A stretch of DNA of 64,000 bases from Escherichia coli (GTDB lineage Bacteria; Pseudomonadota; Gammaproteobacteria; Enterobacterales; Enterobacteriaceae). A model generated the notes under the pieces. It had not been told where the DNA came from, did not search any database, and saw nothing but the letters and a program-made list of their open reading frames with translations. The DNA lies in assembly GCF_030013595.1 (NCBI RefSeq), contig NZ_CP122768.1; one strand, written 5' to 3'. The first letter of the stretch is position 1; every line of letters begins with the position of its first letter. The position numbers and the translations under genes are program-made. Below, piece by piece: positions 104-58,150 of this stretch.

Positions 104-419
104 GTTTTACACCTGAAGACGTTTTGAGTGCTTCGATAAGGCTACTTCGCTCTTCCTCTGTCATCCGAGATATGAGTAATGCAAGTTCTGCTGTTGTCTG
201 ATCATCACAAAAAAGGTAGTTCAACGGCACGTTTAACTCTGCTGCCATCCGTCGAAGCGTATCAATATCGGGGACATGGCGTCCTTTCTCATAATGATTC
301 ATACGACTGCTAGCCGATGCAGGATCAAAGCCAACAAGGAGACCCAGAGAGCGCTGTGATAAACCAGCCCTGCATCTCGCTTCCTTAAGTCGTTCTGGTA
401 TCGGATTTTTTTCAGACAC
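87..419 (-). CDS. Xre/Cro-C1 family helix-turn-helix transcriptional regulator (110 aa)
   Basis: ORF track; HTH_3-like segment LKEARCRAGLSQRSLGLLVGFDPASASSRMNHYEKGRHVPDIDTLRRMAAELNVPLNYLF. Does not match K-12 HipB from memory. The last codons run through an A6 tract (90-96) immediately before the stop. Confidence 0.8.
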   Translation of the reverse strand: MSEKNPIPERLKEARCRAGLSQRSLGLLVGFDPASASSRMNHYEKGRHVPDIDTLRRMAAELNVPLNYLFCDDQTTAELALLISRMTEEERSSLIEALKTSSGVKHADKK

Positions 420-503
420 TGATTCATCTTCATTGGCCTCGAATGCTTAGATTGTCTAAGTATCTGCCATTGTTGTATACTTAGCAATCCTAAGTTAATA
501 GCC

Positions 504-1076
504 TTGTTTTGTCATATGAATAGCCGAGTAACCAACCCTGAGTCGTACATATTTTCTGCAATCATCTTAATTGGCAAAGATAACTTCACCAGTAACGAAG
601 TAGCAAAAATTCTTATCGAGCGATTTTCACTTCCGAAAAATTATTTAAAGGCAAAAGCTTTTGCTTATAACCAAATTCAATCCCTGGTTAGAAAAGGATT
701 ATTAAACAAAGTAAGAAAAACAGGCGTGTATCAATATTTATACTCAGTCACAGCAGAATTCAATGTCGCAATAGAGTGCGTGAAATTAATTGAGGCAACC
801 CCAAAGTCTTCCTGTCAACTTGTTTCAAGTGCTACCAACCATGAACACAGAAATGTAAATATCCAAATAAAGTCTCTTATTGAAAAATACAGCAGTGAAT
901 TGGCGAAAGTATCAGGAGCAAAGGAGATTTATGAGGAATTGATAGTTGCTGTGCCGAGCAGGGAAAATGAATTCAGGAAGCTTTCTCTTGAACAAGAGAA
1001 AAAACACATCAAGATAAATGAAAAAATAAATACATTAATTGGAATTATTAATCAATCTCTTGCAGTAAGGCAATGA
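504..1076 (+). CDS. Hypothetical protein (190 aa), possible winged-helix DNA-binding N-terminus; divergent from the Xre gene
   Basis: ORF track; AT-rich codon usage; no recognisable catalytic motif. Alternative start at MNSRV (position 516). Confidence 0.5.
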   Translation: MFCHMNSRVTNPESYIFSAIILIGKDNFTSNEVAKILIERFSLPKNYLKAKAFAYNQIQSLVRKGLLNKVRKTGVYQYLYSVTAEFNVAIECVKLIEATPKSSCQLVSSATNHEHRNVNIQIKSLIEKYSSELAKVSGAKEIYEELIVAVPSRENEFRKLSLEQEKKHIKINEKINTLIGIINQSLAVRQ

Positions 1077-1110
1077 ATTTTAGCAAGTATTTGAAGCTAA
1101 ATGGAGTCAT

Positions 1111-1145
1111 GAAAAAGAGAGGGCAAAGCCGAACTCCGCCCTCTC
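1111..1145 (-). terminator. Candidate rho-independent terminator for minus-strand transcripts
   Basis: 8-bp stem GAGAGGGC/GCCCTCTC (1117-1124 / 1138-1145) with a 13-nt loop; on the minus strand it is followed by a U5 run (A-run 1112-1116 on plus). Loop is long, so weak. Confidence 0.3.
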
Positions 1146-1891
1146 CCGTCAAGCACTGATATATCTCATTAAAATGAGATTAACAGCGCGCACTCCTATA
1201 TGCTAGTCGTATATAAATATAATGTCAGCCAGTCCCGGATGCAACTCTTTAATGAAGTTCAGTACTCTCTTTTTTTAGTTATCGAAATGATAGTTGGTAC
1301 AAGGGAACACACGAAGAGGAAAATTGCGATGACTTTGACGCAGAGCATGTTGAGTCTATTATTGCGACCCTCGAAGCTCTGGATGCGTTAGATTTACGCC
1401 ACGGAAGATGGACTGTAAGTATCCCTCCAATAGTGCGACTCACTTACCCAGATTGTAAGTTCAAACGGTCGAAGGCACTAGATTCTGATAAGAATTTGAG
1501 GCGCATGAGTACAGGCATTCGATTGTCAGCTTCTGGGTAGTTGTGGGAATTCTGCTCAAAGTGCCGCTGGCCAAAACATATTGGGCGCTGGTCTGTGGCG
1601 GCAAAATGGTGTCACGTAAAAGATACAGATGTTCCAGTCTATTTTTGCCCAATAACGTGCCCCGGGTTCAGTTTTTTTGCTCGGGACTAAAACGCTTATC
1701 CAGATCAGCCGCCAGCTGTTCAATACTCTTCGTTGAGCCTTTATAAATATACCAATCAAACTGTTAAAAACTCGTTCAAATTCGACCAAATATTATTACT
1801 GGCTGATATTAGTTCGGTTAGGCAAAGCGCAACAAACAACTAAGAAGTGCGCCTCAAAAAATTAATTGTAAGGCGCCCCCCTAAAACACAT

Positions 1892-4219: not shown

Positions 4220-4940
4220 GAATCAGAGTCTCGATTAGTTTGTCTGCTTCAATCCCAGATGCAGAAGCATTAAAGATTTTGAGATGAAGACCGGTCAATT
4301 TTTTCTCGGCGAGTGCTTCCTTTACATAAATATCAAGCGGCTTTAGTGAGCTTTCCTTAACAGGAACCTTTACAAATGGAAGCTTTATAAAAATTCTCGC
4401 CGCGACGCTATATAATGTAGGCGATAGTGGTTGATCTCGATATTCTGCAAACATCCTATCATCGACAACAATCGCTGAAACGCTTTCGAAGTTGTGCCCT
4501 TCTAACAACCTAAGCTCTTCCTCGCTGTAATAAAGAAAATATTTTTTAAAATAATATGGATTCTCTTCAATTCCAAACACCTTACTCTCAATTCCATTAA
4601 AATCAACTCGGTGCCTTAATTTATGCAAAATAATCAGATCGGTATTTTTATCGAAAGCAGGATCAGATTTGAATGTTTCAGGAGCATACAGTAACACTAA
4701 TTTATTCAGCACCTGCGGTGATGGTATATTTTCACACTCAACCACAGCGAGGAATCGCTTCCTATCTCCACTATCCTGACTAAAATAAGTCAAAGACTTA
4801 TAATCAACACCTTCAAGACCAGCTAAAGTTTCTCCTGCCGAATACTCTATGGTGACGTCATCTGCTTTAGAATAGTCGCCTGTATTAAACAAAGTAAACT
4901 CATGTTTCAAGGCAGCCTGTAGAACAATATCTTTAATCAT
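4185..4940 (-). CDS. Middle component (251 aa) of the three-gene ATPase operon; candidate LmuC/kleisin-like protein
   Basis: ORF track; overlaps the upstream gene by 8 nt and the downstream gene by 35 nt (translational coupling); AT-rich; no motif recognised by eye. Confidence 0.75.
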   Translation of the reverse strand: MIKDIVLQAALKHEFTLFNTGDYSKADDVTIEYSAGETLAGLEGVDYKSLTYFSQDSGDRKRFLAVVECENIPSPQVLNKLVLLYAPETFKSDPAFDKNTDLIILHKLRHRVDFNGIESKVFGIEENPYYFKKYFLYYSEEELRLLEGHNFESVSAIVVDDRMFAEYRDQPLSPTLYSVAARIFIKLPFVKVPVKESSLKPLDIYVKEALAEKKLTGLHLKIFNASASGIEADKLIETLIHEEMENIQPQD

Positions 4941-6195
4941 TCAACTTCACCCTCGCCTCTTCCTTTGAAATTATTTTTGCATCAAAGGCTTTAGTTATTT
5001 TGTTACGATCCTTACCCATCAATGAAAACTCATCTTCTACAGCATCCCGCGAAGCTCCGGTAGCTGCACAAAATCGCTCAGCGGGTGAAAAAATATTTGC
5101 TCTAGCTGCGATTAGCCATTGATATTCAACTAAGATATCTATCAGCTCTGGATCGCTTTTCAGCTGCTCTATTAGATCTTCAGCAAACCTATGCTCCCGT
5201 CGAGCATTGTCTGCCGAAATTGCTGTTGGCAAATAAAAATCTCCGGCAGAGCACCTATAGTAAGGAGGCTTTTGCTCACTCAGTGGCGCTTTATCTATAT
5301 CGTAGATCACATCCACATAATCATAAACACTGTTCTCACTCACGACCATTGTGGAAGATCCAAAACATAACGACTTCCACAACCATATAAATGGAGTATC
5401 ACCCAACTCTTTAATCTGATCGTAAACATTTGCAACTTTTTGAATAACAGTTCTATCTGCTGTTTTTTCCATTGTATTGGTATACCCATACAATGATTTA
5501 CAAACGGCCATCCTGGCTTGGAACATTTTGTATACAATGTCGTCTTCATGGGTAGCGGTGAGGCTTAATAACTCTACAATCTTCTCACTTTTTAAAGTTT
5601 GAGTAAACGCGGCTTGTGCGGCGCTCATTAACCCATCCTGATTGCACGCGTGTATATATATTACTTGAGCGGCAATATGACTCTGCAAAGCCTCGAACTT
5701 CAAATTCACTAAAAAATCACTGCAAGGTAACTCTTCGGAAACCAGGTACTTCTCAATTTTTGATTTCGTTTTTTCTTCAACATCTTGGAGATAGCAGTAA
5801 GGCAGTCCATCGTAAGTATAAAATTTAACGACATTCCCATTGCTGCCAACAAAATCAGAAGCATCATCAAGGCGCGCAGATGTATGAAAATATCTTTTGG
5901 TAGTCTTATCACACAACATATATGTAGATGCAGCTTTTTCGAGAGCCTCCCTATAGGCAGCTCTTTTATCATCTGCTAGCGCTTTTACCTGATGCGTAGA
6001 AACTGCAACTCCATTTTCAATTATCGAAAAATCATCAATGCTGTCGATTTGCAACTCAAACGACATTTTATTGAGCACACATTCTATGGAATGATAAAGC
6101 GCTAAATGCCCTTGATAAATAAACCCACTCCATGTAGGTGCAGCTGTATGAGGATGGGAGGAAGCCGATTTCGACATGCAATATGTCCTAGGCAA
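4933..6195 (-). CDS. Putative effector (420 aa) of the three-gene operon; candidate LmuA-like protein with possible N-terminal PD-(D/E)xK-type nuclease fold
   Basis: First gene of the minus-strand operon. N-terminal segment GFIYQGHLALYH...IDSIDDFSIIENGVAVSTHQVK contains a D...D...(E/Q)xK-like arrangement; assignment is by eye only. Alternative start at M7 (position 6177). Confidence 0.75.
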   Translation of the reverse strand: MPRTYCMSKSASSHPHTAAPTWSGFIYQGHLALYHSIECVLNKMSFELQIDSIDDFSIIENGVAVSTHQVKALADDKRAAYREALEKAASTYMLCDKTTKRYFHTSARLDDASDFVGSNGNVVKFYTYDGLPYCYLQDVEEKTKSKIEKYLVSEELPCSDFLVNLKFEALQSHIAAQVIYIHACNQDGLMSAAQAAFTQTLKSEKIVELLSLTATHEDDIVYKMFQARMAVCKSLYGYTNTMEKTADRTVIQKVANVYDQIKELGDTPFIWLWKSLCFGSSTMVVSENSVYDYVDVIYDIDKAPLSEQKPPYYRCSAGDFYLPTAISADNARREHRFAEDLIEQLKSDPELIDILVEYQWLIAARANIFSPAERFCAATGASRDAVEDEFSLMGKDRNKITKAFDAKIISKEEARVKLND

Positions 6196-6524
6196 ATTTA
6201 GAGACAGAGTCAGAAGTAACCTTCTAACTCAGTAGAATATGATCTTAATTTCTGTATCCGATGTTTATATTTTTTGTTGAACGCGCCCAGCGGCGTTATG
6301 AAAACTTCCTTGATTGTCATTTTTATGCATTCTCTTGATCGATAGGAATTTAAATCCCAAAAAGATTAAAAAAACACCCAAAAACGGATGTTTATTCGAC
6401 ACTGCCTGCGTGCCATGAGTGCACCGCCATCAATTAAATGGATCTTATCGAGTGATACTGTATATCACTGATGGTTTTTTACTCCATTCCCCTGAAAATG
6501 GACGCAACTTCCCCGATGCGGCTC

Positions 6525-7712
6525 TCAGCCGCACACCCGCTGTTGCGCCAGTGGCTCATGCATCAGGACCAGCTCTGTCAGACGGTAGCCCCGCTTCAGC
6601 CCCGTAAAACGCATCTGACATCCGCACAGGATGCACTTTAGCGGGTCAACCTTCAGTAACCGCTGATACATCCCTCTCCACCTGATTTGCATCGCCGTCT
6701 TTCTCACCGTCTCCGTTATGACGTACACAACATCTTCCAGTAACCGGCGCTTTACCGGACTCAGGAAACCGTAGTACCTCACCATACGGAACCCCTTATC
6801 CGCCACATGCCAGGAGAACCTTTCCATAAACTCATCACCACTCATCACCAGGTATTCTTCCCGTTTTGTCCGGTGACTGTTGTAACGCAGACCAATTTCA
6901 TCCTGACCAGCATAGTGCTCCAGACGGCTCATCGGCACCGGCGGTTTTTTCAGGTAAGAGCCGAAGTACACCGCCACATGTGTGGCGTTATCCATCACCC
7001 GGGATACGTTGACATTCCAGCCCCGCCGGTAATGACTGTCCAGGAAGCGATTCCAGTCCCGTCTGCTGCTTCCTTCAACTGCCAGCGCATCCGGTATCAC
7101 CAGCTCCGGGTATTTTCGTGACAGTAACCACGTTATCCTGTAACGCCACATGCTCATCACCTTACGGGCGTAAAAATGAAGGTTTTTCCAGGTGTGGTCT
7201 GGTGTCACGCCGCCGGCCGTTGTCGACAGGTGAATGTGCGGATGCCACTGCTGGTCACGTCCCCATGTGTGGATGACCGTGAATATCCCCGGCACCACAT
7301 CTGCCTGGCGGCAGATTTCCTGTATCACATCCGCAGCAATGCGGCTCATCTCTGCCAGTAACCACCGGTTGTGGAACACCAGGGACCAGTACTGGCAGGG
7401 AAGTGTGAACACAATATGCTGCCACGGACAGTCGGGAACCAGACTCAGCAGATACTGTATCCACTGTGCGCCAGCCTTCACTCCGCAGTGCGGGCAGGAG
7501 CGACTTTTACACCGGAAGCAGACCTTTTTTGTGTGGCAACAGTCCGGAGATGAACAGCACCACTGTGTGTACCCCATCAGCGTGGTTCCGCACGCCATGA
7601 TTTTTGTCACCGACTCAATGACTACCGGACGCACTGAACCTTCCGGTTGTTTCTCCAGCCAGTTAAGCCAGCGGTTTCCCTGCTGAAAAATGTCGGCAAA
7701 ACGGGGAAGCAT
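6525..7712 (-). CDS. tnpA: IS91-family transposase TnpA
   Basis: N-terminal Cys-rich zinc-binding region (CCSSPDCCH...CFRCKSRSCPHCG), HUH motif HPHIH, conserved Tyr-containing C-terminal region. Likely start at MLPRF (7712), sharing one nucleotide with the orf121 stop; ORF track extends to 7757. Confidence 0.85.
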   Translation of the reverse strand: MLPRFADIFQQGNRWLNWLEKQPEGSVRPVVIESVTKIMACGTTLMGYTQWCCSSPDCCHTKKVCFRCKSRSCPHCGVKAGAQWIQYLLSLVPDCPWQHIVFTLPCQYWSLVFHNRWLLAEMSRIAADVIQEICRQADVVPGIFTVIHTWGRDQQWHPHIHLSTTAGGVTPDHTWKNLHFYARKVMSMWRYRITWLLSRKYPELVIPDALAVEGSSRRDWNRFLDSHYRRGWNVNVSRVMDNATHVAVYFGSYLKKPPVPMSRLEHYAGQDEIGLRYNSHRTKREEYLVMSGDEFMERFSWHVADKGFRMVRYYGFLSPVKRRLLEDVVYVITETVRKTAMQIRWRGMYQRLLKVDPLKCILCGCQMRFTGLKRGYRLTELVLMHEPLAQQRVCG

Positions 7713-8077
7713 CAGAAGGGCGGGGGGACTCCGTCCGGCCAGTGAACCGTGCCACACTCCGGGCAGTACATGCCGCCGGCGCTGATACCGGCAAGAATGG
7801 TCGCAAACTCCCGCTCCGTGCAGCGGGCTATTTCAGGATACCCTTCGTCATCGACACGAACAAACCAGAAGACCAGCTTTTTGTTTCCGGCATCCACAAA
7901 GAAGGGAATATTCAGGTCTGCGCAGCACTCAACGGCATCGTCAAAATTATCAAAGCGCAGAGCTTCTGCGTCTTCTTCGTCAAAGAAGTCATCGTCGTGA
8001 AGCTTCACGACATAGCGGGGAAGTTTGCTTCTTTGAGGGGCAGGTTTTCGTTTACGGGGTTTAGCTGAACGGGACAT
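7712..8077 (-). CDS. IS91 accessory ORF (ORF121-like, 121 aa)
   Basis: 121-aa ORF immediately upstream of and overlapping tnpA, as in IS91. Confidence 0.65.
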   Translation of the reverse strand: MSRSAKPRKRKPAPQRSKLPRYVVKLHDDDFFDEEDAEALRFDNFDDAVECCADLNIPFFVDAGNKKLVFWFVRVDDEGYPEIARCTEREFATILAGISAGGMYCPECGTVHWPDGVPPPF

Positions 8078-8964
8078 ATAACTACCTGAAAGACAATGAT
8101 ATTGTCTGTTTTTATAACGGTAATTTCAGGCCATGACAAGCCGCAGCCGCCAAGCTGCCTACTCGAGCGATATCGCTATGATATCACCGAATGTAACATA
8201 CCTGTAGGGTCAAAAAAAGGGTCAGCCAAACATTCTGGAGTGTTCGGTATCGTTGGTACCATTCATGCAAAATGGACTTAAATCTTAAGAAAGACACTCC
8301 ATTAGCTTAAGCTTCCCTACCTTACCCTACCAATACACCTAGCCAGCCGTGAGAACGCTACCGCCATCAGAGGCATTAGTCCCGATTAAGTATCGATGCA
8401 ACCAAATGTTACCAAAATTCATGAATTGTTCAAGAAGGCAATCAGATAATCCCTAAAGCTTTATGGGCCTGGTTATGCGATTACATTGGGAAATGGTTCA
8501 TGAACAGAAGTAGAGCAAGCTGCCAAGAAATGCTCATAAGAGGCGAATTTCCTGTTAGTTCATGAAGCCACCTGGAAGTGAATTCATCTTTCTATTAAAA
8601 ATATTCATTTAAAGCAAAGAGATATGTCATCTGTGGTTTATGAACTGGATTCTCGCTCAACATAAGTTAAATGTGGTGGGTTTGTTCTTAAGTTCATGTG
8701 TTCCGCTCTTTCAGTAGCTTAACTGATGAATCAGTCAGCAGCTCTTGCCGTGCAAGCTACGCGGCGGTTCGTACCAGATTGGCCACCTCCATCTCCTGGT
8801 TCGCTTTCCCCTCCCCCCGGTAAACCTCACCCAACGTTAATTAATGATGTCAGTATGTGGGCGCTATCCTTGTATGTAAAATCCACTGACGATTATGCCC
8901 ATCTGTGAAAAAAACTCACAATGCCATTCGATGCATCTCCATACTGAACGAGGCGTTATCGTCT

Positions 8965-9864
8965 TTATCGCCCCGTAGTGGATATCAGAAAATCAATCAG
9001 GGCCTTCACTCTTTTCGTTTTACCCGCGTTTTTGGGGTAATAGAGATACACTGGCGGGTAGGTTTTCCAGTAGCTCTCCATCACCGGAATAAAGCGCTCC
9101 CTGTCCGGCTGTAACTGCCAGACAGGCTCAAACAAGCGCCCAATTCCCAGCCCGTTACGGATCCCGTCTGCCATAACGTCAATATCGTTGCTGATTAACT
9201 GCCCCGGCATCTCAACGGTCAACTGCTCACCGCGATCGTTCAGGAGCAGCGGAAGGATGCGGTTGTTGGTGATAAAACGGTAACCAATCAGCTGGTGATG
9301 ACAGAGATCTGCCGGCACTTCAGGCGTTCCATGTCGGGAGAGATACGCTGAGGATGCATATAATCCTTCACGAAACGGTTTCATTAACGGTCGGGCCACC
9401 ACCCCTCCCTCAAGAATATCGCCAAAACGGATCCCCAGATCAAAACGCTCTTTGATGATATTCACGGTACCGTCGTAGACCGAAATTTCTAACTGTATAC
9501 CCGGATATTGCTGACAGAATTCTGCCATCGCAGGCTTAAGAATTAACAGGTAGGCAAAACGCGAGAGCGTAATTCGCACCATCCCAGAGGGCTCCTGATG
9601 CTGGTCGCGAATGCTTTCAAGCGAGTTTTCCAGCGACTCCACCGCCGCAGCGGTCTGTTCCAGCAATAATTGACCGGTTTCCGTCAGCTCTATACGGCGG
9701 GTCGTACGCACAAAAAGCGGATGGCCGATATACTCTTCCAGCAGCTTTAGTGCATTGCTGACGGAGGGAGGCGTAATTTCCAGTTTCCTTGCGGCTGCCG
9801 AAATATTGCCCTCCCGCGCAATGCTCTGGAAGATGCGAATCTGGTTATAAAGAGCGTTATTCAT
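8965..9864 (-). CDS. LysR-family transcriptional regulator
   Basis: 299 aa; N-terminal HTH (ISAAARKLEITPPSVSNALKLLEE) and LysR substrate-binding domain; divergent from the downstream oxidoreductase operon. Confidence 0.9.
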   Translation of the reverse strand: MNNALYNQIRIFQSIAREGNISAAARKLEITPPSVSNALKLLEEYIGHPLFVRTTRRIELTETGQLLLEQTAAAVESLENSLESIRDQHQEPSGMVRITLSRFAYLLILKPAMAEFCQQYPGIQLEISVYDGTVNIIKERFDLGIRFGDILEGGVVARPLMKPFREGLYASSAYLSRHGTPEVPADLCHHQLIGYRFITNNRILPLLLNDRGEQLTVEMPGQLISNDIDVMADGIRNGLGIGRLFEPVWQLQPDRERFIPVMESYWKTYPPVYLYYPKNAGKTKRVKALIDFLISTTGR

Positions 9865-12031: not shown

Positions 12032-12133
12032 AGCCCGTCCGGAACAGACTGTCATGAATGACACACACGAACGGGCTGTTCCGGGTGATTCTAATCTGTA
12101 TCACTTTTACTGCTTTGTATGAATGGTGAGAAT

Positions 12134-12812
12134 ATGAAAATCATTTGCCTCGAAGAAAATTATCTCGACAGCGAGTTAGGGCGAGCGTGTATGCCTGTTG
12201 CGCTTGAGCAGGCACCTTTCCTTGGCGACTGGGGGAAAACCGTCGCTGATGGTCATAATCCTGACCGACTCCCTGCTTTCCCGCTTTAATAAACTGAATG
12301 TGCCACTCTATCTTCATCCCGGGTTACCGCTTAAAAGCGTACAGCAGGCCTACTTCACGGGCTTCAGCGCAGAGGTCAACGCCAGGCTTTCTATGTTTGC
12401 CTGGGGCTGGCATCACGAAGCGGGGATCCATTTGTTGCGGCTGATGTTATCGGGTGCATTTGATAAATATCCCCACTTGCAGGTAATCAGTGGCCACTGG
12501 GGGGAGATGTTACCCTTCTGGCTCCAGCGTCTTGATGACAGCCTACCACTGGCTGCAACGGGTCTGTCACGCACGCTAACGAGAACCTTCCAGCAACACG
12601 TTTACGTTACCCCGTCAGGTATGCTGACACTGCCGCACTTCAAGTTTATCTACGCGTTAATGGGGGCTGAAAGGATCCTGTTCTCCGTCGATTATCCCTA
12701 TCAGACCCCTGGACGGTGTAAAAACCTTTATAGACAGTCTGCCCGTCAACAAGGCTGAAAAAGAGGCCATCGCGTTTCGCAATGCAGAACGTTTACTGGG
12801 CATCACGGTTTA
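12134..12812 (+). pseudogene. Disrupted amidohydrolase-2 family gene (frameshifted/truncated)
   Basis: Three consecutive frames carry pieces: MKIICLEENY... (12134-), the 186-aa ORF 12198-12758 (…ISGHWGEMLPFWLQRLDD…FSVDYPYQ…) and a C-terminal tail …KEAIAFRNAERLLGITV ending ~12812. No single intact ORF. Confidence 0.55.
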
Positions 12813-12963
12813 GTTCACCGTTTCATGATGACTGAGCACATTGTGATCAGCCGACAATTATTAGTTTTTGCCTAAAAGTGAATGAGCCTTTACTGCTCTA
12901 AAAAAATAATGTTGTCACTCTATACTGGATTTAATATTCACCAAAGATGTTTAACTGATTGAA

Positions 12964-13536
12964 ATGAAAAATATCCTTGTTATTTCAGGTCATCCTGAGC
13001 TTACCCATTCCGTCGCCAATGCCACTATTCTTGATGAAGTGGAGACCGCCCTTCCCGATGTTGAGATTCGTCGTCTGGACAGGCTCTATCCGGATGGCAA
13101 ATTCAACATCGCGGCGGAGCAGAAAAGCCTGCTCAGGGCCGATGTGATTGTCTGGCAGTTCCCTTTTTCCTGGTATGGGCTGCCAGGATTAATGAAAAAA
13201 TGGCTGGACGAGGTCTTTGTTCACGGCTTCGCGCATGGCTCAACGGCGAAACTGGGCGGTAAAAAGCTGATCCTCTCCTTTACAACGGGAGCGCCAGAGG
13301 AGCTCTATACCGTCGACAGTTTCTTTGGCCATACCATTGAAGAGTATCTTATTCCGTTCGAAACCACGGCAAGGCTGTGCAATCTTGAGCTGCTGGCGCC
13401 GGTTTATACCTGCGGTATCAGCTATGCCGACCGGGATGCCGACAAAATCGCGCAGCAAAAAACGCTTGCCCGGGAACACGCTTCAAGGCTTGTCGAACTG
13501 CTCAATTCCGTCGTGAATAATCCAGAGGGAGAATAA
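12964..13536 (+). CDS. Flavodoxin-like NAD(P)H dehydrogenase (quinone) family protein
   Basis: 190 aa; MKNILVISGHPE... N-terminus and size typical of NAD(P)H:quinone oxidoreductase / KefF-like proteins. Confidence 0.75.
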   Translation: MKNILVISGHPELTHSVANATILDEVETALPDVEIRRLDRLYPDGKFNIAAEQKSLLRADVIVWQFPFSWYGLPGLMKKWLDEVFVHGFAHGSTAKLGGKKLILSFTTGAPEELYTVDSFFGHTIEEYLIPFETTARLCNLELLAPVYTCGISYADRDADKIAQQKTLAREHASRLVELLNSVVNNPEGE

Positions 13537-13538
13537 CA

Positions 13539-14558
13539 ATGCAGTATACCCGGCTCGGTAAAAGTGACTTACTTGTTTCCCGCATCTGCATGGGATGCAT
13601 GGGGTTTGGCGATCCGTCGACGGGTCAGCATAGCTGGACGCTGGACGAAACAGCAAGCCGCGACATCATTCGCTATGGCCTTGAAAAGGGCATCAACTTT
13701 TACGATACCGCTATAGCCTACCAGAATGGCTCCAGTGAGCGATACGTTGGCCGGGCATTACGGGAGATGGCGAAACGCGATGATATCGTCCTGGCCACCA
13801 AGTTTCTGCCGCGAACCCCCGCACAAATTGCCGGAGGGATCAGCGGAAAAGAGGCAATCGCTCAATCCCTTGACCAGAGCCTGAAGAATCTGGGGATGGA
13901 CTATATCGACCTCTACATCTACCACATCTGGGATTACAACACGCCCATTATCGACGTGCTTGAAGCGTTACATACCGCTGTTACTGCTGGCAAAGTACGA
14001 GCTGTTGGTATTTCAAACTGCTATGCCTGGCAGCTGGCGAAGGCGAACGCCCTTGCTGAACGCGAAGGGCTGACGCCCTTTGTTTCCGTACAGAGCCACT
14101 ACAATCTAATTATGCGCGAAGATGAACGGGAGCTCTTCGGCCTGTGCACTGAGGATAATATCGCAATGACCCCCTATAGCGCGCTGGCCAGCGGCCGCCT
14201 CTCTCGTAAAGAAGGCTATACACGGCGAGCCACAGAGGATGACTATGCGCGTGGAAAATATGACAGCACGGCTGAACAGGATCGCAACATTATTGAGCGT
14301 GTAGCCGAACTGGCCGAACGTCATCTGGTGTCAATGACGGAAATATCTCTCGCTTGGCTGCTGACAAAAGTCACATCACCTGTCGTAGGGGCTACAAAAA
14401 AAGCTCATGTCGATGGCGCGGTAAACGCAGTAAATCTTCAACTAAGTCCGGAGGAAATTCAGTTTCTGGAAGAAACCTACCAGCCGCATGTTCTGACGGG
14501 GATCATGGCGCAAAATACGCCGCAAACGAAAGATGTTAAGCAGGTCTGGATGCGATAG
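13539..14558 (+). CDS. Aldo/keto reductase family oxidoreductase (Tas/YajO-like)
   Basis: 339 aa; AKR hallmarks (…INFYDTAIAYQNGSSE…, …GISNCYAWQ…). Confidence 0.85.
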   Translation: MQYTRLGKSDLLVSRICMGCMGFGDPSTGQHSWTLDETASRDIIRYGLEKGINFYDTAIAYQNGSSERYVGRALREMAKRDDIVLATKFLPRTPAQIAGGISGKEAIAQSLDQSLKNLGMDYIDLYIYHIWDYNTPIIDVLEALHTAVTAGKVRAVGISNCYAWQLAKANALAEREGLTPFVSVQSHYNLIMREDERELFGLCTEDNIAMTPYSALASGRLSRKEGYTRRATEDDYARGKYDSTAEQDRNIIERVAELAERHLVSMTEISLAWLLTKVTSPVVGATKKAHVDGAVNAVNLQLSPEEIQFLEETYQPHVLTGIMAQNTPQTKDVKQVWMR

Positions 14559-14673
14559 CCCTTATTCACTTTTCCTCCTCTCGTCTTTGAGAGCGCCAGT
14601 AGCGGTCGGTTACGTTCTTACCAGCACCAGTTGATCGAACGTCTTAAACAGTAATGTCAGTAAAAAGATCATC

Positions 14674-15399
14674 GTGAAAAAGACTTTTATGCTTTTAATT
14701 TGCATGCTAATAAGCAGCCCTGTCTTTGCAACAAAACCGGACGCGCCGAATAAGCCGGAGATGAATATCTTCGAGCTCGGCATCAGACCCGATCGGGACA
14801 ACGACTTTGCAGACGTGGCCAGACAGACGATTTCCGCTTCGGTTGATCATGAAGCTGGTACACTGGCGATGTATGCCCTGAAACGCAGCGACAATTCAGG
14901 TCAGGCATTCATGTTCGAACTCTATGAAAATGAGCGTGCTTATCGCAAACATCTCAATGCCGCCCCATACAAAGCATTCGCTGCTCGTGCACCTGACATT
15001 ATTGACAGGAAGAAGAAAATTACCCTGGAGCCACAGTTTCTGGGCGACAAACACATCATACCGAATGAACGAACTATCAATAATCTGGTGATCGTCGAAG
15101 TAAAGCCTGAATTTCAGAGCGAATTTAGAAACATCGTCCTTCCTGAAATGGTCGAGTCGCTCAAAGTAGAGAAAGGCGTGTTAGCCATGTATGCCGGTAC
15201 AGATTCAGAGACTCCAAAACGATGGTATTTCTATGAGATTTACGCCAGTGAGGAGGATTATCAACTGCACCGACAAACGCTGCACTTCCTGGATTACCTC
15301 AGGCAAACGGCGCATATGAGCGCCAGGAAGGACGCAATCCCGGTAAAACCGGTATTTCTTCGTAACAAAGGCGGAATCAAACAGGAGCCGCAACGTTGA
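14674..15399 (+). CDS. Secreted tandem ABM (antibiotic-biosynthesis-monooxygenase-like) domain protein
   Basis: 241 aa; N-terminal signal-peptide-like MKKTFMLLICMLISSPVFA; two repeats of similar length, each with an ...AMYAL/AMYAG...YE.Y...Y..H pattern. Confidence 0.65.
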   Translation: MKKTFMLLICMLISSPVFATKPDAPNKPEMNIFELGIRPDRDNDFADVARQTISASVDHEAGTLAMYALKRSDNSGQAFMFELYENERAYRKHLNAAPYKAFAARAPDIIDRKKKITLEPQFLGDKHIIPNERTINNLVIVEVKPEFQSEFRNIVLPEMVESLKVEKGVLAMYAGTDSETPKRWYFYEIYASEEDYQLHRQTLHFLDYLRQTAHMSARKDAIPVKPVFLRNKGGIKQEPQR

Positions 15400-15414
15400 C
15401 CAGTAAGGATTAAC

Positions 15415-16218
15415 ATGAAAAGCGTACTTGCAGCAGCGGCTATGTCGCTTGTTATTTCTGATTTTGCCAATGCTGAGGAAACAAGAGGTAAAGCTATGAT
15501 GAAAATAGAACCGTCAGCGATTTCGGAAGCTGATATTCGTTCCGTCTCACCGGCTCTCGCGCGCTTTGGTCGCGAAGCTATTACTGAAGATCTGTGGACA
15601 CGCGACGCCCTCTCACCGAGGGATCGTAGTGTGGTGACCGTCGCCATGCTGATTGCCCGCAACCAGCCTGCCGAGCTTAAGCACTATATTGACGTCGCTC
15701 TCGATAGCGGCGTGACGCCAGCGGAATTATCAGAAATCATTACCCATCTGGCGTTCTACTCAGGTTGGCCAAATGCAATGTCAGCCGTCAGCGTGACCAA
15801 AGCAGTATTTGAAACTCGTGGCGTCACGGCAGATGCACTTCCTGAAGCTTCTCCGGACCTGCTTCCTCTCAATCAGGAAGCAGAAAAGCAGCGTTCAGAG
15901 ACAGTGGAAAAAAATGTTGGCCCAATATCTCCAGGCCTGGTTAAATTCACTGCTGATCCACTCTTCCTGGATCTCTGGCAAAGACCCGCGCTGAAACCCC
16001 GCGACAGAAGCCTGATTACGGTCAGCGCCTTAATCGCATCCGGACAGAGCGCGCAGATTGGCTATCACCTCAATAGAGCAATGGATAATGGACTTTCTGT
16101 TGAGGAAGCTGGTGAGATCGTTACCCAGGCCGCCTTCTATGCTGGCTGGCCAAACGCATTTACCGCTGCTCCGGTTGTGGGAGAGGTGCTAAACAATCGA
16201 TCATCGAGTAAAAGGTAA
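15415..16218 (+). CDS. Tandem carboxymuconolactone-decarboxylase (CMD) family protein, possibly exported
   Basis: 267 aa; two repeats each with ...LW.R.ALSPRDRS..TVA.LIA... and ...HL.RA.D.G...E..E...H.AFY.GWPNA... motifs; hydrophobic N-terminus. Confidence 0.7.
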   Translation: MKSVLAAAAMSLVISDFANAEETRGKAMMKIEPSAISEADIRSVSPALARFGREAITEDLWTRDALSPRDRSVVTVAMLIARNQPAELKHYIDVALDSGVTPAELSEIITHLAFYSGWPNAMSAVSVTKAVFETRGVTADALPEASPDLLPLNQEAEKQRSETVEKNVGPISPGLVKFTADPLFLDLWQRPALKPRDRSLITVSALIASGQSAQIGYHLNRAMDNGLSVEEAGEIVTQAAFYAGWPNAFTAAPVVGEVLNNRSSSKR

Positions 16219-16632
16219 CATTACTGAACACTAAAACCTGACGCACATCACAAAATTAGAACGATCAGTTCATGAACCAACAGACGTGACATCGAGTGAT
16301 TTATGGACAGCGTTTAACACAGTTATGAACCAAAACTGAGTTCATAACTGTGAGTTTGAATCGTCATTTGATTAATATCCATTTAAAACAGTTTGTTATG
16401 CTGTTTCTGGTGCTGAAGTCAATTATGTATATCCCTCAAACCCAGAATAGTTAAATGGAATTTGAGTGATGCGAAGCGATTTTACGGTCGTCGTTATTAC
16501 TTCAGGGTTCCAGAACATAAAGCCTCTCCTCTTTCATGATTGGCCTGTGCATACCGGATATAGGCTGGCTGGTATGCAGGTTTGCCGTTTGCCGCATCTT
16601 CCCTGCGTTGAAGAGTCAGGCTGGCAAACCGC

Positions 16633-16887
16633 GTGCAAATGAACACCCCCTCTTTCCATCAACACTTCAGACAGCTTGCGGGAATGAGTCCACTCCGGTA
16701 TCAGAAATGGCTACGCCTCAATGAAGCCAGGCGACTGATGCTGAATGAACATTACGATGTCACCACTGCAGCCTATGCTGTCGGTTACGAAAGCTTATCC
16801 CATTTCAGTCGGGAATATTCGCGGATGTTTGGAGAGTCACCTAAGAGAGATATTGCCAGGTTAAGAAAGTCTGTCGGTCAGCTTTAA
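16633..16887 (+). pseudogene. yneL: AraC-family regulator remnant (C-terminal HTH only), yneL-like
   Basis: 84-aa ORF carrying only an AraC C-terminal HTH (…FHQHFRQLAGMSPLRYQKWLRLNEARRLML…LSHFSREYSRMFGESP…); no N-terminal domain upstream. Matches the position of the K-12 yneL remnant next to the yde fimbrial genes. Confidence 0.6.
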
Positions 16888-17320
16888 TAAACCCTGCACT
16901 TATCTGTTTAAAGCAATTCCGTGTTAGTTACACCAGGCAAACATTAACTATGGCTAATGATTTATAGCCATATAAACCATTGGTCGCTCTTGACCTTTCC
17001 TGACACTTCCCTTGTTCGCAATAATATTCTGTTTAGTCGCTGTTTATAAATAACATGCATAATGAAATCGTAATGTTATTTAGCGACATAAAATGTCTTT
17101 GCAAATACTCTCTACAACAAGTGCTGCAATAAACTTGTTGTGATTAGGTGTCCTTGTAATTTAAAGATATTATCGTTCTTCGTGAAATGTAATAACCCTG
17201 GAAACTATATTCTCAGGGCAATATCCCATCAAGAATGATTCTTGTTTTATAAGCAATAACAGAATGACTTAATTGTTAACTTTCTTTATTCAGCTACTTA
17301 AATATAAATTTTGGAGAATT

Positions 17321-30872: not shown

Positions 30873-31162
30873 TAACGCTCCCTCTTTGCTCCAGTCTTAG
30901 CTTCGTTCTTATGGCCTTAACAAGACACCCGACATAAATTACTGTTGGGTGTTTCGTCATCATCATCTTCCCTTGCGAAAATTCTGACTTACGTGGTATG
31001 CGTCAGGGCATTAGCAATACCCTTGATTATCAATAGCATAACCATAACCACTGAAAATTAAAAAATTCTTTATATTTCATATTGTTAAATGATACTTAAA
31101 TAAATTTCATCAGTAAATCATTGCCATAGATAATCATTGGATGGCACAATCAATTTTCGCTA

Positions 31163-32848
31163 ATGATAACCATTCCCATTACGTTTCGTATGTTGATAGC
31201 AAAGTATCTCTGTCTGCTGAAGCCCTTTTGGCTGCGTAAGAATAATAAAACTTCAGTGCTGTTAATCATTATTATCCTCGCCATGATCCTTGGCGTTGTT
31301 AAAATTCAGGTCTGGTTAAACGACTGGAATAATGATTTTTTCAATGCGCTAAGCCAGAAAGAAACCGATAAGCTTTGGCAGCTTGTTCTTTGGTTCCCTG
31401 CCCTGCTGGGGATCTTTGTATTAATATCCGTAAACAAAACATGGTTAATTAAACTACTGACAATTCGCTGGCGCGAATGGTTAACAGATTACTACCTTAA
31501 TCGCTGGTTTGCAGATAAAAACTACTACTTCACGCAGATCTACGGTGAGCATAAAAATACAGATAACCCTGACCAACGTATCGCTGAAGACATTCTCTTA
31601 CTGATCAGCAAAACGCTCAGCCTTTCATTTGGCTTCATCCAGTCACTTAGCATGCTGATCACCTTTACCGTTATTCTTTGGCAAAGCGCGGGTACGCTCT
31701 CATTCACTGTTGGTGGAACTGAATGGAATATCCAGGGGTATATGGTCTATACCGTCGTGCTCATTGTGATCGGTGGAACTTTATTTACCCATAAGGTTGG
31801 CAAACGTATTCGTCCGCTTAATGTGGAAAAACAACGTAGCGAAGCGACATTTCGAACTAATCTTGTGCAGCATAATAAGCAGGCAGAACTGATTGCGCTA
31901 AGCAATGCTGAGTCTTTACAACGCCAGGAGTTGAGCGACAATTTTCATACCATTAAAGAGAACTGGCATCGTTTAATGAATCGTCAGCGCTGGCTTGATT
32001 ACTGGCAGAATATTTATTCGCGCTCGCTTAGCGTTCTTCCCTACTTTCTGTTATTGCCACAGTTTATTAGCGGACAGATCAATCTGGGCGGACTGATGAA
32101 ATCGCGCCAGGCATTTATGCTGGTATCGAACAATTTAAGCTGGTTTATTTATAAATATGACGAACTCGCTGAACTGGCTGCGGTTATCGATCGCTTGTAT
32201 GAGTTCCATCAACTCACCGAACAGCGCCCTACGAATAAGCCAAAAAATTGCCAACATGCGGTTCAAGTGGCTGACGCGAGTATTCGTACTCCTGATAATA
32301 AGGTTATATTAGAGAACCTGAACTTTCATGTTTCGCCAGGCAAATGGCTCTTACTGAAAGGTTACTCTGGTGCGGGAAAAACCACACTGCTTAAAACATT
32401 ATCCCACTGCTGGCCGTGGTTTAAAGGTGATATTTCGTCTCCTGCTGACAGTTGGTATGTGTCACAAACACCGTTAATCAAAACCGGCTTACTGAAAGAG
32501 ATAATTTGTAAAGCACTTCCCTTGTCCGTAGACGATAAATCGTTGAGCGAAGTACTGCATCAGGTTGGTCTGGGGAAATTGGCTGCGCGTATTCATGACC
32601 ACGATCGCTGGGGAGATATTCTTTCCAGCGGCGAAAAACAACGTATCGCCCTGGCACGATTAATTTTACGACGTCCGAAATGGATATTTCTTGACGAAAC
32701 TACCTCTCATCTTGAGGAACAAGAGGCTATCCGCTTACTGCGTTTAGTGCGTGAAAAACTACCCACAAGCGGCGTCATTATGGTTACACATCAACCCGGT
32801 GTCTGGAACCTGGCTGATGATATTTGTGACATTAGCGCGGTTTTATAA
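31163..32848 (+). CDS. yddA: ABC transporter fused permease/ATPase YddA
   Basis: 561 aa; N-terminal TM segments plus C-terminal ABC ATPase (GYSGAGKTT Walker A, LSSGEKQR signature). Confidence 0.9.
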   Translation: MITIPITFRMLIAKYLCLLKPFWLRKNNKTSVLLIIIILAMILGVVKIQVWLNDWNNDFFNALSQKETDKLWQLVLWFPALLGIFVLISVNKTWLIKLLTIRWREWLTDYYLNRWFADKNYYFTQIYGEHKNTDNPDQRIAEDILLLISKTLSLSFGFIQSLSMLITFTVILWQSAGTLSFTVGGTEWNIQGYMVYTVVLIVIGGTLFTHKVGKRIRPLNVEKQRSEATFRTNLVQHNKQAELIALSNAESLQRQELSDNFHTIKENWHRLMNRQRWLDYWQNIYSRSLSVLPYFLLLPQFISGQINLGGLMKSRQAFMLVSNNLSWFIYKYDELAELAAVIDRLYEFHQLTEQRPTNKPKNCQHAVQVADASIRTPDNKVILENLNFHVSPGKWLLLKGYSGAGKTTLLKTLSHCWPWFKGDISSPADSWYVSQTPLIKTGLLKEIICKALPLSVDDKSLSEVLHQVGLGKLAARIHDHDRWGDILSSGEKQRIALARLILRRPKWIFLDETTSHLEEQEAIRLLRLVREKLPTSGVIMVTHQPGVWNLADDICDISAVL

Positions 32849-32885: not shown

Positions 32886-35258
32886 ATGAAGCGAGTTCTT
32901 ATTCCTGGCGTCATTTTATGTGGCGCTGATGTGGCGCAGGCCGTCGATGACAAAAACATGTACATGCATGTTTTTGAAGAGATGACGGTCTATGCTCCTG
33001 TCCCTGTACCCGTAAACGGCAATACGCATTACACCAGTGAAAGCATCGAGCGTTTACCGACCGGGAATGGCAATATCAGCGATCTGCTGAGAACCAACCC
33101 TGCTGTGCGCATGGATTCAACGCAAAGTACCTCGTTGAACTAGGGAGATATTCGCCCGGAGAAAATCTCTATTCACGGTGCGTCGCCCTACCAGAATGCC
33201 TATTTGATTGATGGTATTAGTGCAACTAATAACCTGAACCCAGCGAATGAGTCCGATGCCAGTAGTGCAACCAATATTAGCGGGATGTCACAGGGGTATT
33301 ATCTAGATGTCAGCTTACTTGACAATGTGACGCTTTATGACAGTTTTGTGCCGGTTGAATTTGGTCGCTTCAATGGCGGGGTAATTGATGCAAAGATCAA
33401 ACGCTTCAATGCTGATGATAGCAGCGTGAAACTGGGTTATCGCACTACGCGTTCGGACTGGTTAACATCGCATATCGATGAGAATAACAAGAGCGCATTT
33501 AATCAAGGTTCTTCAGGAAGTACTTATTACTCTCCAGATTTTAAAAAGAACTTTTATACCTTGTCGTTTAATCAGGAACTGGCTGATAACTTCGGCGTTA
33601 CCGCCGGTTTATCGCGCCGCCAGTCTGATATCACCCGCGCGGATTATGTTTCGAATGACGGCATTGTCGCCGGTCGGGCACAGTATAAAAACGTTATCGA
33701 TACCGCAGTGAGCAAATTTACCTGGTTTGCCAGCGACCGCTTTACCCACGATTTAACATTAAAATATACCGGCTCCAGTCGTGATTATAATACCAGCACC
33801 TTCCCGCAGTCTGATCGTGAAATGGGTAATAAATCCTACGGTCTGGCATGGGATATGGATACGCAGCTCGCAAGGGCCAAACTACGTACCACCGTTGGTT
33901 GGGATCATATTAGTGATTATACCCGTCACGATCATGACATCTGGTACACCGAACTTTCATGTACATATGGTGATATTACAGGGCGTTGCACCCGTGGCGG
34001 ATTAGGACACATTTCCCAGGCTGTAGATAATTACACCTTCAAAACACGCCTGGACTGGCAAAAATTCACCGTGGGTAATGTTTCGCATCAACCCTACTTC
34101 GGCGCGGAATACATCTATTCCGATGCATGGACTGAACGCCATAACCAGTCTGAATCCTATGTGATTAATGCTGCCGGAAAGAAAACTAACCATACCATTT
34201 ACCATAAAGGTAAAGGCAGCCTGGGAATTGACAACTACACGCTGTATATGGCGGATCGCATTAGCTGGCGTAATGTGTCATTAATGCCCGGCGTGCGGTA
34301 TGACTATGACAACTATCTGTCAAACCACAATATCTCCCCGCGCTTTATGACGGAATGGGATATTTTTGCTGATCAAACCTCAATGATTACCGCCGGTTAT
34401 AACCGTTACTATGGCGGGAATATTCTTGATATGGGATTACGTGATATCCGCAATAGCTGGACGGAATCGGTATCAGGAAATAAAACCCTGACGCGTTATC
34501 AGGATTTGAAAACACCTTATAACGATGAACTGGCAATGGGGTTGCAGCAGAAAATCGGTAAGAACGTTATTGCGCGTGCAAACTATGTTTATCGTGAAGC
34601 GCATGATCAAATCAGTAAAAGCAGTCGTACCGACAGCGCGACTAAAACCACCATTACTGAATATAACAACGACGGCAAAACCAAAACGCATTCGTTCAAC
34701 CTCAGTTTTGAACTGGCCGAACCCCTGCATATCAGCCAGGTAGATATTAACCCGCAAATTGTCTTTAGCTATATCAAGAGCAAGGGCAACTTGTCGTTAA
34801 ACAATGGTTATGAGGAAAGCAATACCGGCGATAACCAGGTGGTTTATAACGGTAATCTGGTCTCTTACGATAGCGTTCCAGTGGCAGATTTTAATAACCC
34901 ATTAAAGATCTCCTTAAACATGGATTTCACGCATCAACCGAGCGGGTTGGTGTGGGCGAATACGCTGGCCTGGCAAGAAGCGCGTAAAGCTCGCATTATC
35001 CTGGGTAAGACGAATGCGCAATACATCAGCGAATATTCAGATTACAAGCAGTATGTTGACGAAAAACTGGATAGCAGCCTGACCTGGGACACCCGCTTGT
35101 CCTGGACGCCACAATTTCTGAAACAACAAAACCTGACGATCAGTGCCGATATTCTCAATGTACTGGATAGCAAAACCGCGGTTGATACAACGAATACCGG
35201 TGTGGCGACCTACGCCAGTGGCCGTACTTTCTGGCTTGATGTCAGCATGAAATTTTAA
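32886..35258 (+). pseudogene. yddB: TonB-dependent outer-membrane receptor YddB interrupted by an in-frame amber codon
   Basis: N-terminal 85-aa ORF (signal peptide) ends at a stop at 33141-33143; the same frame continues (GDIRPEKISIHGASPYQNAYLIDG…) into the 684-aa ORF 33204-35258. Single in-frame nonsense codon rather than a frameshift. Confidence 0.8.
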
Positions 35259-35302: not shown

Positions 35303-38098
35303 ATGGAGATAATTATGAGAAACCTCTGTTTCTTACTGACGTTAGTGGCAACTCTGTTGCTCCCCGGGCGACTGATTGCCGCCGCCTTACCGCAGGATGA
35401 AAAGTTAATTACCGGGCAACTGGACAATGGCTTGCGATATATGATTTATCCGCATGCTCAACCAAAGGATCAGGTAAATTTATGGCTGCAAATTCATACG
35501 GGTTCATTGCAGGAAGAAGACAATGAGCGCGGCGTGGCTCATTTTGTAGAACATATGATGTTTAACGGCACAAAAACATGGCCGGGTAATAAAGTCATCG
35601 AAACATTTGAGTCAATGGGCCTGCGCTTTGGTCGCGATGTTAATGCCTATACCAGCTATGACGAAACGGTGTATCAGGTAAGTTTGCCGACTACGCAGAA
35701 ACAAAATCTGCAACAAGTGATGGCAATATTCAGTGAATGGGGTAATGCCGCAACCTTTGATAAACTCGAAGTAGACGCTGAACGCGGCGTAATTACTGAG
35801 GAATGGCGTGCCCATCAGGATGCGAAATGGCGCACCTCTCAGGCGCGCCGCCCTTTCCTGCTGGCAAATACCCGTAATTTAGAGCGTGAACCTATCGGCC
35901 TGATGGATACTGTCGCCACGGTCACACCGGCACAATTGCGCCAATTTTATCAACGCTGGTATCAACCAAATAATATGACCTTTATCGTGGTCGGCGATAT
36001 CGACAGTAAAGAAGCGCTGGCGCTGATTAAGGATAATTTAAGTAAGCTTCCGGCTAACAAAGCAGCTGAAAATCGCGTCTGGCCGACAAAAGCCGAAAAT
36101 CACCTGCGCTTTAATATCATTAATGATAAAGAAAACCGGGTGAACGGCATCGCACTCTATTATCGCCTGCCAATGGTACAAGTGAACGATGAGCAAAGCT
36201 TTATCGAACAAGCTGAATGGAGCATGTTAGTTCAGCTGTTCAATCAACGTCTGCAGGAACGCATACAGTCGGGCGAGTTGAAGACTATTTCTGGCGGCAC
36301 TGCGCGCAGCGTTAAAATTGCACCCGATTATCAGTCGCTGTTTTTCCGTGTAAATGCACGAGACGATAATATGCAGGATGCTGCGAATGCATTAATGGCA
36401 GAGTTGGCAACTATTGATCAGCATGGTTTTTCTGCTGAAGAACTCGATGATGTCAAATCTACCCGCCTCACCTGGCTGAAAAATGCGGTTGATCAGCAAG
36501 CTGAACGTGATTTACGTATGCTGACCAGTCGCCTGGCATCCAGCTCATTAAATAATACGCCGTTCTTGTCGCCGGAAGAGACATATCAACTTTCGAAACG
36601 TCTGTGGCAGCAAATTACCGTGCAAAGTCTGGCGGAAAAATGGCAGCAGTTAAGAAAGAACCAGGATGCATTTTGGGAGCAAATGGTAAAAAATGAGGTT
36701 GCTGCCAAAAAAGCATTGTCTCCTGCGGCTATCCTGGCGCTGGAAAAAGAGTACGCCAACAAAAAGCTGGCGGCTTACATCTTCCCAGGCAGAAATTTAT
36801 CGTTAACAGTAGACGCTGACCCACAGGCGGAAATTAGCAGCAAAGAAACGCTGGCTGAGAATCTGACATCATTAACACTTTCCAATGGTGCCAGGGTTAT
36901 TCTGGCAAAATCCGCGGGTGAAGAGCAAAAGCTACAAATTACTGCCGTATCTAATAAAGGCGATTTAAGTTTCCCTGCGCAGCAAAAATCACTTATCGCG
37001 CTGGCAAATAAAGCAGTAAGCGGAAGCGGCGTTGGTGAACTCTCCTCTTCCAGCCTGAAACGCTGGAGTGCGGAAAACTCGGTAACCATGAGCAGTAAAG
37101 TCAGTGGCATGAATACGTTGCTCTCCGTTAGCGCGCGGGCTAATAACCCTGAACCTGGTTTCCAGTTGATTAACCAGCGAATCCCCCACAGCACGATTAA
37201 CAACAATATTTGGGCATCGCTACAAAATGCTCAAATTCAGGCGTTGAAAACGCTCGACCAGCGTCCAGCGGAGAAATTCGCCCAGCAGATGTATGAGACG
37301 CGCTATGCTGATGACCGCACGAAATTACTGCAAGAAAATCAGATTGCACAGTTTACTGCCGCAGATGCGCTGGCTGCCGATCGCCAGTTGTTTTCATCTC
37401 CAGCGGATATCACGTTTGTCATTGTCGGTAATGTCGCAGAAGACAAACTCGTGGCGTTAATTACGCGTTACTTAGGATCAATCAAACACTCTGATTCGCC
37501 ATTAGCCGCAGGTAAACCATTAACTCGCGCGACGGACAACGCATCGGTTACTGTAAAAGAACAAAATGAACCTGTGGCACAGGTTTCACAGTGGAAGCGT
37601 TATGATTCCCGGACACCGGTTAATCTGGCGACGCGTATGGCGCTCGATGCTTTTAACGTCGCACTGGCAAAAGATCTACGCATTAATATTCGTGAACAGG
37701 CCTCTGGGGCATACAGCGTTTCTTCTCGCCTCTCGGTTGATCCTCAGGCCAAAGATATCAGTCATTTGCTGGCTTTTACTTGTCAACCGGAACGACATGA
37801 TGAACTGTTAACGTTAGCGAATGAAGTGATGGTTAAGCGTCTGGCTAAAGGGATCAGTGAGCAAGAACTGAACGAATACCAGCAAAACGTTCAGCGCAGC
37901 CTCGATATCCAACAGCGTAGCGTTCAACAATTAGCGAACACCATTGTAAATAGTCTTATTCAATATGACGATCCTGCAGCATGGACTGAGCAGGAGCAAT
38001 TGTTGAAACAAATGACGGTAGAGAATGTTAACACTGCCGTTAAACAATATCTTTCTCATCCGGTGAATACCTATACCGGAGTATTATTGCCAAAATAA
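35303..38098 (+). CDS. pqqL: Periplasmic M16-family zinc protease PqqL
   Basis: About 931 aa; HFVEH inverted zinc-binding motif; signal peptide; K-12 synteny. Start 35303 (MEIIM) versus 35315 (MRNL) not resolved. Confidence 0.9.
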   Translation: MEIIMRNLCFLLTLVATLLLPGRLIAAALPQDEKLITGQLDNGLRYMIYPHAQPKDQVNLWLQIHTGSLQEEDNERGVAHFVEHMMFNGTKTWPGNKVIETFESMGLRFGRDVNAYTSYDETVYQVSLPTTQKQNLQQVMAIFSEWGNAATFDKLEVDAERGVITEEWRAHQDAKWRTSQARRPFLLANTRNLEREPIGLMDTVATVTPAQLRQFYQRWYQPNNMTFIVVGDIDSKEALALIKDNLSKLPANKAAENRVWPTKAENHLRFNIINDKENRVNGIALYYRLPMVQVNDEQSFIEQAEWSMLVQLFNQRLQERIQSGELKTISGGTARSVKIAPDYQSLFFRVNARDDNMQDAANALMAELATIDQHGFSAEELDDVKSTRLTWLKNAVDQQAERDLRMLTSRLASSSLNNTPFLSPEETYQLSKRLWQQITVQSLAEKWQQLRKNQDAFWEQMVKNEVAAKKALSPAAILALEKEYANKKLAAYIFPGRNLSLTVDADPQAEISSKETLAENLTSLTLSNGARVILAKSAGEEQKLQITAVSNKGDLSFPAQQKSLIALANKAVSGSGVGELSSSSLKRWSAENSVTMSSKVSGMNTLLSVSARANNPEPGFQLINQRIPHSTINNNIWASLQNAQIQALKTLDQRPAEKFAQQMYETRYADDRTKLLQENQIAQFTAADALAADRQLFSSPADITFVIVGNVAEDKLVALITRYLGSIKHSDSPLAAGKPLTRATDNASVTVKEQNEPVAQVSQWKRYDSRTPVNLATRMALDAFNVALAKDLRINIREQASGAYSVSSRLSVDPQAKDISHLLAFTCQPERHDELLTLANEVMVKRLAKGISEQELNEYQQNVQRSLDIQQRSVQQLANTIVNSLIQYDDPAAWTEQEQLLKQMTVENVNTAVKQYLSHPVNTYTGVLLPK

Positions 38099-58120: not shown

Positions 58121-58150
58121 AAAAATGGCGCTTCTTAAAGCGCCATTTTC
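58121..58150. terminator. Bidirectional rho-independent terminator between convergent yddM and fdnI
   Basis: AAAAA-TGGCGCTT-ctta-AAGCGCCA-TTTTC: stem flanked by an A-run and a T-run. Confidence 0.65.

Follow-up and report, generated by a model that had tools for sequence, protein, structure and literature searches.

An apparently inherited amber codon at a former Dcm site in Escherichia coli yddB and its recurrence on independent haplotypes

The gene yddB, which encodes a FusA-like TonB-dependent outer-membrane transporter, is interrupted by a single in-frame amber codon in the 64-kb stretch of E. coli DNA analysed here, which is referred to as the window. Taken as a whole, the observations are best explained by an inherited C-to-T change that turned the codon for Gln-86 into an amber codon, probably through deamination at a Dcm site, in a recent event by which YddB was lost. 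We give this reading a probability of about 0.88. The same nonsense change is found on several distant yddB haplotypes, where it has arisen independently at least four times.

Translation of the locus reveals a gene of 790 codons that runs from an ATG at 32886 to a TAA at 35256-35258 and contains exactly one internal stop, the TAG of codon 86, where the ancestral codon is CAG (Gln) and the change within the gene is C256T. The features on which the argument depends are the following.

32886..35258, plus strand: yddB pseudogene, FusA-like TonB-dependent outer-membrane transporter, full length save for one amber codon
33141..33143, plus strand: amber codon TAG, codon 86, recognised by translation and by alignment to CAG alleles
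33140..33144, plus strand: former Dcm site, now CTAGG, which is CCAGG in all CAG alleles examined; the mutated base is 33141
32886..33143, plus strand: truncated product of 85 aa, identical to STE01820.1 / UniRef100_A0A376HA72
33204..35258, plus strand: mechanical downstream ORF of 684 aa from the ORF list, with a TTG start at codon 107; deposited as a separate 'gene', STE01821.1

A sequence-only reading of the window had described a frame that is continuous except for one stop after residue 85, and had placed a glutamine at this position in the K-12 protein. The in-frame amber codon is confirmed by translation, and codon 86 of K-12 is indeed CAG. The comparison with other strains that it had proposed finds CAG in K-12 MG1655 and in the three nearest alleles, all of them intact at this codon. 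The stop is therefore a C-to-T change against the consensus at gene position 256 rather than a random stop codon in a frame that is no real gene. The gene itself is widespread: of 5,426 complete E. coli genomes, 4,641 have a megablast match to it, with identities of 95-99.8%. K-12 b1495 and the yddB of the window are 97.9% identical in nucleotide sequence across all 2,373 nt, and K-12 YddB matches PDB 6OFR (E=0), a structure that covers residues 29-790. The Dcm-site context of the mutation, its recurrence in unrelated lineages and its prior public deposition were all absent from the earlier reading.

The local gene order, ydeN, ydeM, yddA, yddB, pqqL, gadB, gadC, is the same in K-12 and in the closest complete genome. 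In agreement with the description of yddB as the partner gene of yddA and pqqL, it lies between the two, both of which are intact and retain complete Pfam domain sets.

31163..32848, plus strand: yddA, intact, 561 aa, with ABC_membrane_2/SbmA_BacA and ABC_tran domains; first gene of the yddA-yddB-pqqL operon
35315..38098, plus strand: pqqL, intact, 927 aa, with M16 peptidase domains; 3' of the amber codon on the same transcript
31160..31177, minus strand: putative Fur box GGGAATGGTTATCATTAG, overlapping the yddA start

The three genes have been described as co-transcribed and regulated by Fur, and the putative Fur box of the window is an exact copy of the one reported for strain CFT073 (PMC3855560). 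The system they encode contributes to the fitness of uropathogenic E. coli during systemic infection (PMC3855560). YddB has been characterised as a FusA-like transporter whose external binding site is large, and PqqL as a periplasmic M16 protease, and the deletion of yddB had no phenotype in iron-limited LB (PMC6793856). A scan for promoter and terminator consensus sequences around yddA-pqqL returned counts no higher than those in shuffled sequence.

The position of the stop suggests that little of the transporter could be made. The Pfam Plug domain corresponds to residues 47-161 of YddB, and codon 86 lies inside it, ahead of any barrel strand. The product of 85 residues would comprise what is probably a signal peptide, then the N-terminal extension and some 39 residues of the plug, with no barrel, and in a Pfam search of each yddB fragment alone neither of them reaches a match. 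An uninterrupted frame for signal peptide, plug and 22-strand barrel is lacking from the yddB of the window. No ribosome-binding site is evident at the in-frame starts that follow, the TTG of codon 107 and the ATG of codon 134, and since the products of re-initiation would be devoid of a signal peptide, a functional YddB transporter could not be expected from them either. With a stop inside the plug and no barrel, YddB is almost certainly null in this strain. Translation would halt after 85 residues, and the Fur-regulated YddA-YddB-PqqL system, which has been proposed to act in protease-associated protein import, is predicted to be without its outer-membrane component in the strain. A further effect on pqqL is plausible, given that this gene, intact as it is, may be under-expressed owing to Rho-dependent polarity over the roughly 2.1 kb of yddB mRNA left untranslated. 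For annotators, the consequence is that yddB should be marked as a pseudogene in the window strain.

The changed base sits exactly in a Dcm motif, and such motifs account for about 70% of the errors in some nanopore consensus assemblies (PMC6591954), so that the TAG might be thought a nanopore miscall at a Dcm-methylated CCWGG in a genome that really carries CAG. This explanation appears highly improbable. The closest complete genome, NZ_CM149870.1, is 99.92% identical to the window, from which it differs by 31 single-base differences. The window has 173 CCWGG sites, of which a single one is changed between the two, by C256T itself; the other 30 differences fall elsewhere, a distribution that does not support a motif-driven artefact. 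Moreover, TAG is present in all of four further assemblies of the lineage (L009, L010, L014 and L015, taken from NCBI and from SRA-run assemblies), each of them separated from the window by 1-4 nt in about 12 kb. In the public protein collections, which draw on several sources, the exact 85-aa product is encoded on 99 contigs and the exact 684-aa product on 39, and the two have been deposited under the adjacent accessions STE01820.1 and STE01821.1. Conversely, TAG at codon 86 occurs in only one of the 4,641 complete genomes with yddB, which is a poor fit to a systematic error at the motif. In that one genome, DLI.5a, RefSeq also annotates yddB as a pseudogene ('internal stop').

The real and inherited nature of the stop is further supported by a later substitution. 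The synonymous change C1593A is common to the window and L014 and absent from the rest of the TAG clade; it is thus nested within that clade, which indicates that the stop was inherited through later divergence. As for age, what separates the yddB of the window from its nearest CAG allele is C256T, one synonymous change on the window side and two changes on the side of the CAG allele. A distance of so few changes agrees with the suggestion, made from the sequence alone, that the gene was inactivated recently. Judged from these alleles, the Q86* event is recent and fixed in a small clade. The allele is already present in public databases, and its presence in the window strain is a case of ordinary strain-level gene loss.

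Several other features of the window and of its relatives were observed in the course of these comparisons. A ydeT-type fimbrial usher gene (18999-21651, plus strand) carries a frameshift near 19390-19450 that divides PapC_N between an ORF at 18999-19448 and an ORF at 19387-21651, the latter with Usher and PapC_C; together with yddB, it brings the disrupted outer-membrane protein genes of the window to two. An insertion of roughly 1.8 kb at 6344-8162, containing an IS91-family transposase ORF (6525-7757, minus strand), is absent from NZ_CM149870.1. The 9.6 kb at 12122-21776 carry KefF-like, aldo-keto reductase and PcaC-like genes together with fimA/fimC-like fimbrial genes, and their place is taken in NZ_CM149870.1 by an ISVsa5 (IS4-like) copy beside a truncated fimF. 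That genome (L001/L004) has two internal stops in the aligned region, one being W322* in yddB (TGG to TAG, window position 33850) and the other lying in a LysR-family regulator (window 8965-9864) which is intact in the window, where position 9495 is G and the relative has A. With Q86* included, nonsense changes make up 3 of the 31 single-base differences that separate the genomes. A 9-bp indel, GCGCCATTT, is found at 58140-58148 against the closest genome, just upstream of the fdnI 3' end, in the gap after yddM according to the annotation of the relative. Lastly, window positions 1-6200 correspond to L004 12367-18711, an island annotated in the relative as an AAA family ATPase and 'ABC-three component system' proteins; the copy in the relative adjoins Xre/MbcA-type antitoxin and integrase genes as well as hipBA, and the island may be a defence island.

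The sequence context of C256T points to the mechanism by which it arose. The change affects the inner cytosine of a Dcm site, the base that Dcm methylates, AAC-CAG-GGA having become AAC-TAG-GGA (CCAGG to CTAGG), and CCAGG is present in every CAG allele examined. An in-frame CAG within CCAGG is reportedly a classic amber hotspot in lacI, as described by Coulondre et al. in 1978. At such sites, the deamination of 5-methylcytosine gives rise to a T:G mismatch in CTWGG/CCWGG that is normally corrected by Vsr in very-short-patch repair (PMC2715241). In yddB, a 5-methylcytosine at codon 86 would have been deaminated to thymine and would have escaped this repair, and we consider it likely, from the motif and the type of base change, that C256T originated in this way.

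Retrieval of contigs coding for precisely the 85-aa product yielded additional carriers of the allele. The TAG haplotypes comprise the window clade, L007/L013, L011, DLI.5a, L008 and L012, which are 31-55 nt apart; the distance from the yddB of the window is 55 nt for L007/L013, 38 nt for L011 and 49 nt for DLI.5a. For two of these haplotypes an intact allele was found from which TAG can be derived in a single step, given that C256T is the sole difference between L007 and the intact yddB of the complete genome ZJ3920, and likewise between L011 and the intact yddB of strain 2018-166. The yddB of DLI.5a differs from that of K-12 by 2 nt, C256T and one other base, and since this K-12-like haplotype is 49 nt distant from that of the window, its TAG represents an independent event. 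A common short recombination tract was considered as the source of TAG and excluded, because two SNPs in the immediate flanks, one 7 nt before position 256 and one 17 nt after it, vary among the TAG carriers and because of the two single-step TAG alleles. From these comparisons, C256T has arisen independently at least four times (in the window clade, L007/L013, L011 and DLI.5a), and probably six when L008 and L012 are counted. The allele offers a clear case, from natural strains, of homoplasy in an amber codon at a Dcm site, with a known mutational mechanism, and it cautions against assuming common descent whenever different lineages share a nonsense allele.

These haplotypes also bear on whether functional full-length YddB is still made, with a suppressor tRNA of the supE/supF type or efficient read-through carrying translation past the amber codon. 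The yddB of the window is fully intact apart from the TAG, as this explanation would have it. However, the intactness of the gene beyond the stop is accounted for by the youth of the lineage, in which the stop has been followed by only one further substitution, and it is therefore uninformative on constraint. Other carriers of the stop show further decay: L008 and L012 each have a different extra 1-nt deletion downstream of Q86*, as expected of a gene that is dead after the stop, and DLI.5a pairs Q86* with an IS insertion in yddA. Together, the deletions and the yddA insertion argue that no selection keeps the gene in carriers of the stop. Natural isolates seldom have strong amber suppressors, and the basal read-through of UAG is around 1% or less. 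No tRNA genes were found by ARAGORN in the 64-kb window. The production of full-length YddB through the amber codon is accordingly given a very small probability, and amber suppression in the window strain seems unlikely from what the other carriers of the stop show.

To return to the loss of YddB through a Dcm-site mutation, the frequency of comparable alleles was surveyed in the 5,426 complete genomes with composite queries, made of 47-mers with a transition-derived TAG at CAG or TGG codons in five haplotype versions, such that only mutant alleles seed megablast. In the Dcm-site query, junction-breaking bases were added and no 28-mers were common with wild-type alleles. An earlier version of the Dcm query had matched 201 genomes, and was discarded since about 190 of these were an artefact of wild-type 28-nt seeds across a segment junction (query 90-141). 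The cleaned query matched 11 of the 5,426 complete genomes, at 7 of the 9 sites (codons 86, 280, 353, 378, 651, 734 and 740). The non-Dcm query, which has no junction breakers and thus gives an upper bound, matched 35 of the 5,426 (22 with the same allele, Q722*), at about 9 of 25 sites. Across both queries, at least 46 complete genomes carry a transition-derived amber codon in yddB. The difference between 7 of 9 Dcm-type sites and about 9 of 25 non-Dcm sites in complete genomes is borderline (Fisher p=0.052), in a comparison that is conservative because the non-Dcm count is an upper bound.

Truncation products were also counted as exact matches in a collection of 15 billion proteins, where the numbers of contigs are confounded by clonal descent.

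Q86*, Dcm: 99 contigs (common N-terminus) and 110 (K-12-type N-terminus)
Q103*, non-Dcm: 16 contigs
Q136*, non-Dcm: 35 and 34 contigs
W192*, non-Dcm: 16 contigs
Q230*, non-Dcm: 25 contigs
Q246*, non-Dcm: 45 contigs
Q266*, non-Dcm: 22 contigs
W280*, Dcm: 26 and 7 contigs

Among the truncations looked up, Q86* is the commonest, with the same confounding by clonal descent. The other Dcm site, W280*, is not elevated, with 33 contigs against 16-69 for the six non-Dcm sites. The frequency of Q86* fits a mutational hotspot, and the class effect across Dcm sites is not uniform.

The abundance of inactivated alleles raises the question of whether the loss of YddB has been selected, as an escape from a phage, a bacteriocin or a host factor that uses the receptor. 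Several observations are in line with this possibility, beginning with the presence of Q86* on at least four independent backgrounds and with the sister genome HCP5S3_I2, which has its own W322*. Public truncation products were found for every CAG or TGG codon looked up. Insertion sequences have also entered the operon, with IS2 interrupting yddB in strain tcmA_3 (H169, NZ_CP059835.1) and ISKpn26 splitting yddA in DLI.5a (L006, NZ_CP103972.1, 2846-5731), alongside Q86*; furthermore, 785 of the 5,426 complete genomes have no megablast match to yddB. TonB-dependent transporters are in addition frequent targets of antibacterial proteins (PMC6793856). Set against this, each nonsense allele is rare, and removing yddB leaves growth in vitro unaltered (PMC6793856). 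In the literature searched, neither a phage nor a colicin using YddB as its receptor, nor a report of yddB as a pseudogene, was found, and one phage-receptor paper merely tabulates yddB among membrane-protein genes. A dispensable, niche-specific gene with a mutable site would explain the data equally well through neutral loss. Selection for yddB nonsense alleles is consequently regarded as rather unlikely, and still somewhat less credence is given to recurrent positive selection for receptor loss in which the Dcm site at codon 86 would serve as a high-rate 'off' route; an adaptive loss of yddB is speculative. If it were true, the distribution of natural yddB-null strains could point to the ligand or the exploiter of the YddB-PqqL import system. 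The gene yddB is in any case dispensable and frequently inactivated.

With regard to known systems, the closest point of reference is YddB of K-12 (b1495; PDB 6OFR), which the gene of the window resembles in length, in frame, in its neighbours yddA and pqqL and in the Fur box. The two differ at codon 86, which is CAG in K-12 and TAG in the window, where only an N-terminal fragment of 85 residues can be made and the gene is therefore a pseudogene. Among natural alleles, the yddB of DLI.5a (NZ_CP103972.1) is likewise an 'internal stop' pseudogene in RefSeq, with the identical C256T, and yet it resides on a K-12-like haplotype unlike that of the window. The yddB of HCP5S3_I2 (NZ_CM149870.1) bears the same RefSeq label, but its stop is W322* at a non-Dcm TGG codon. 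The likeness to the Dcm amber hotspots reported for lacI extends to the motif, to the inner C as the base affected, to the C-to-T change and to the conversion of CAG to TAG, and Q86* additionally recurs on independent backgrounds. Whereas the lacI hotspots were seen in a reporter assay, Q86* of yddB occurs in natural populations.
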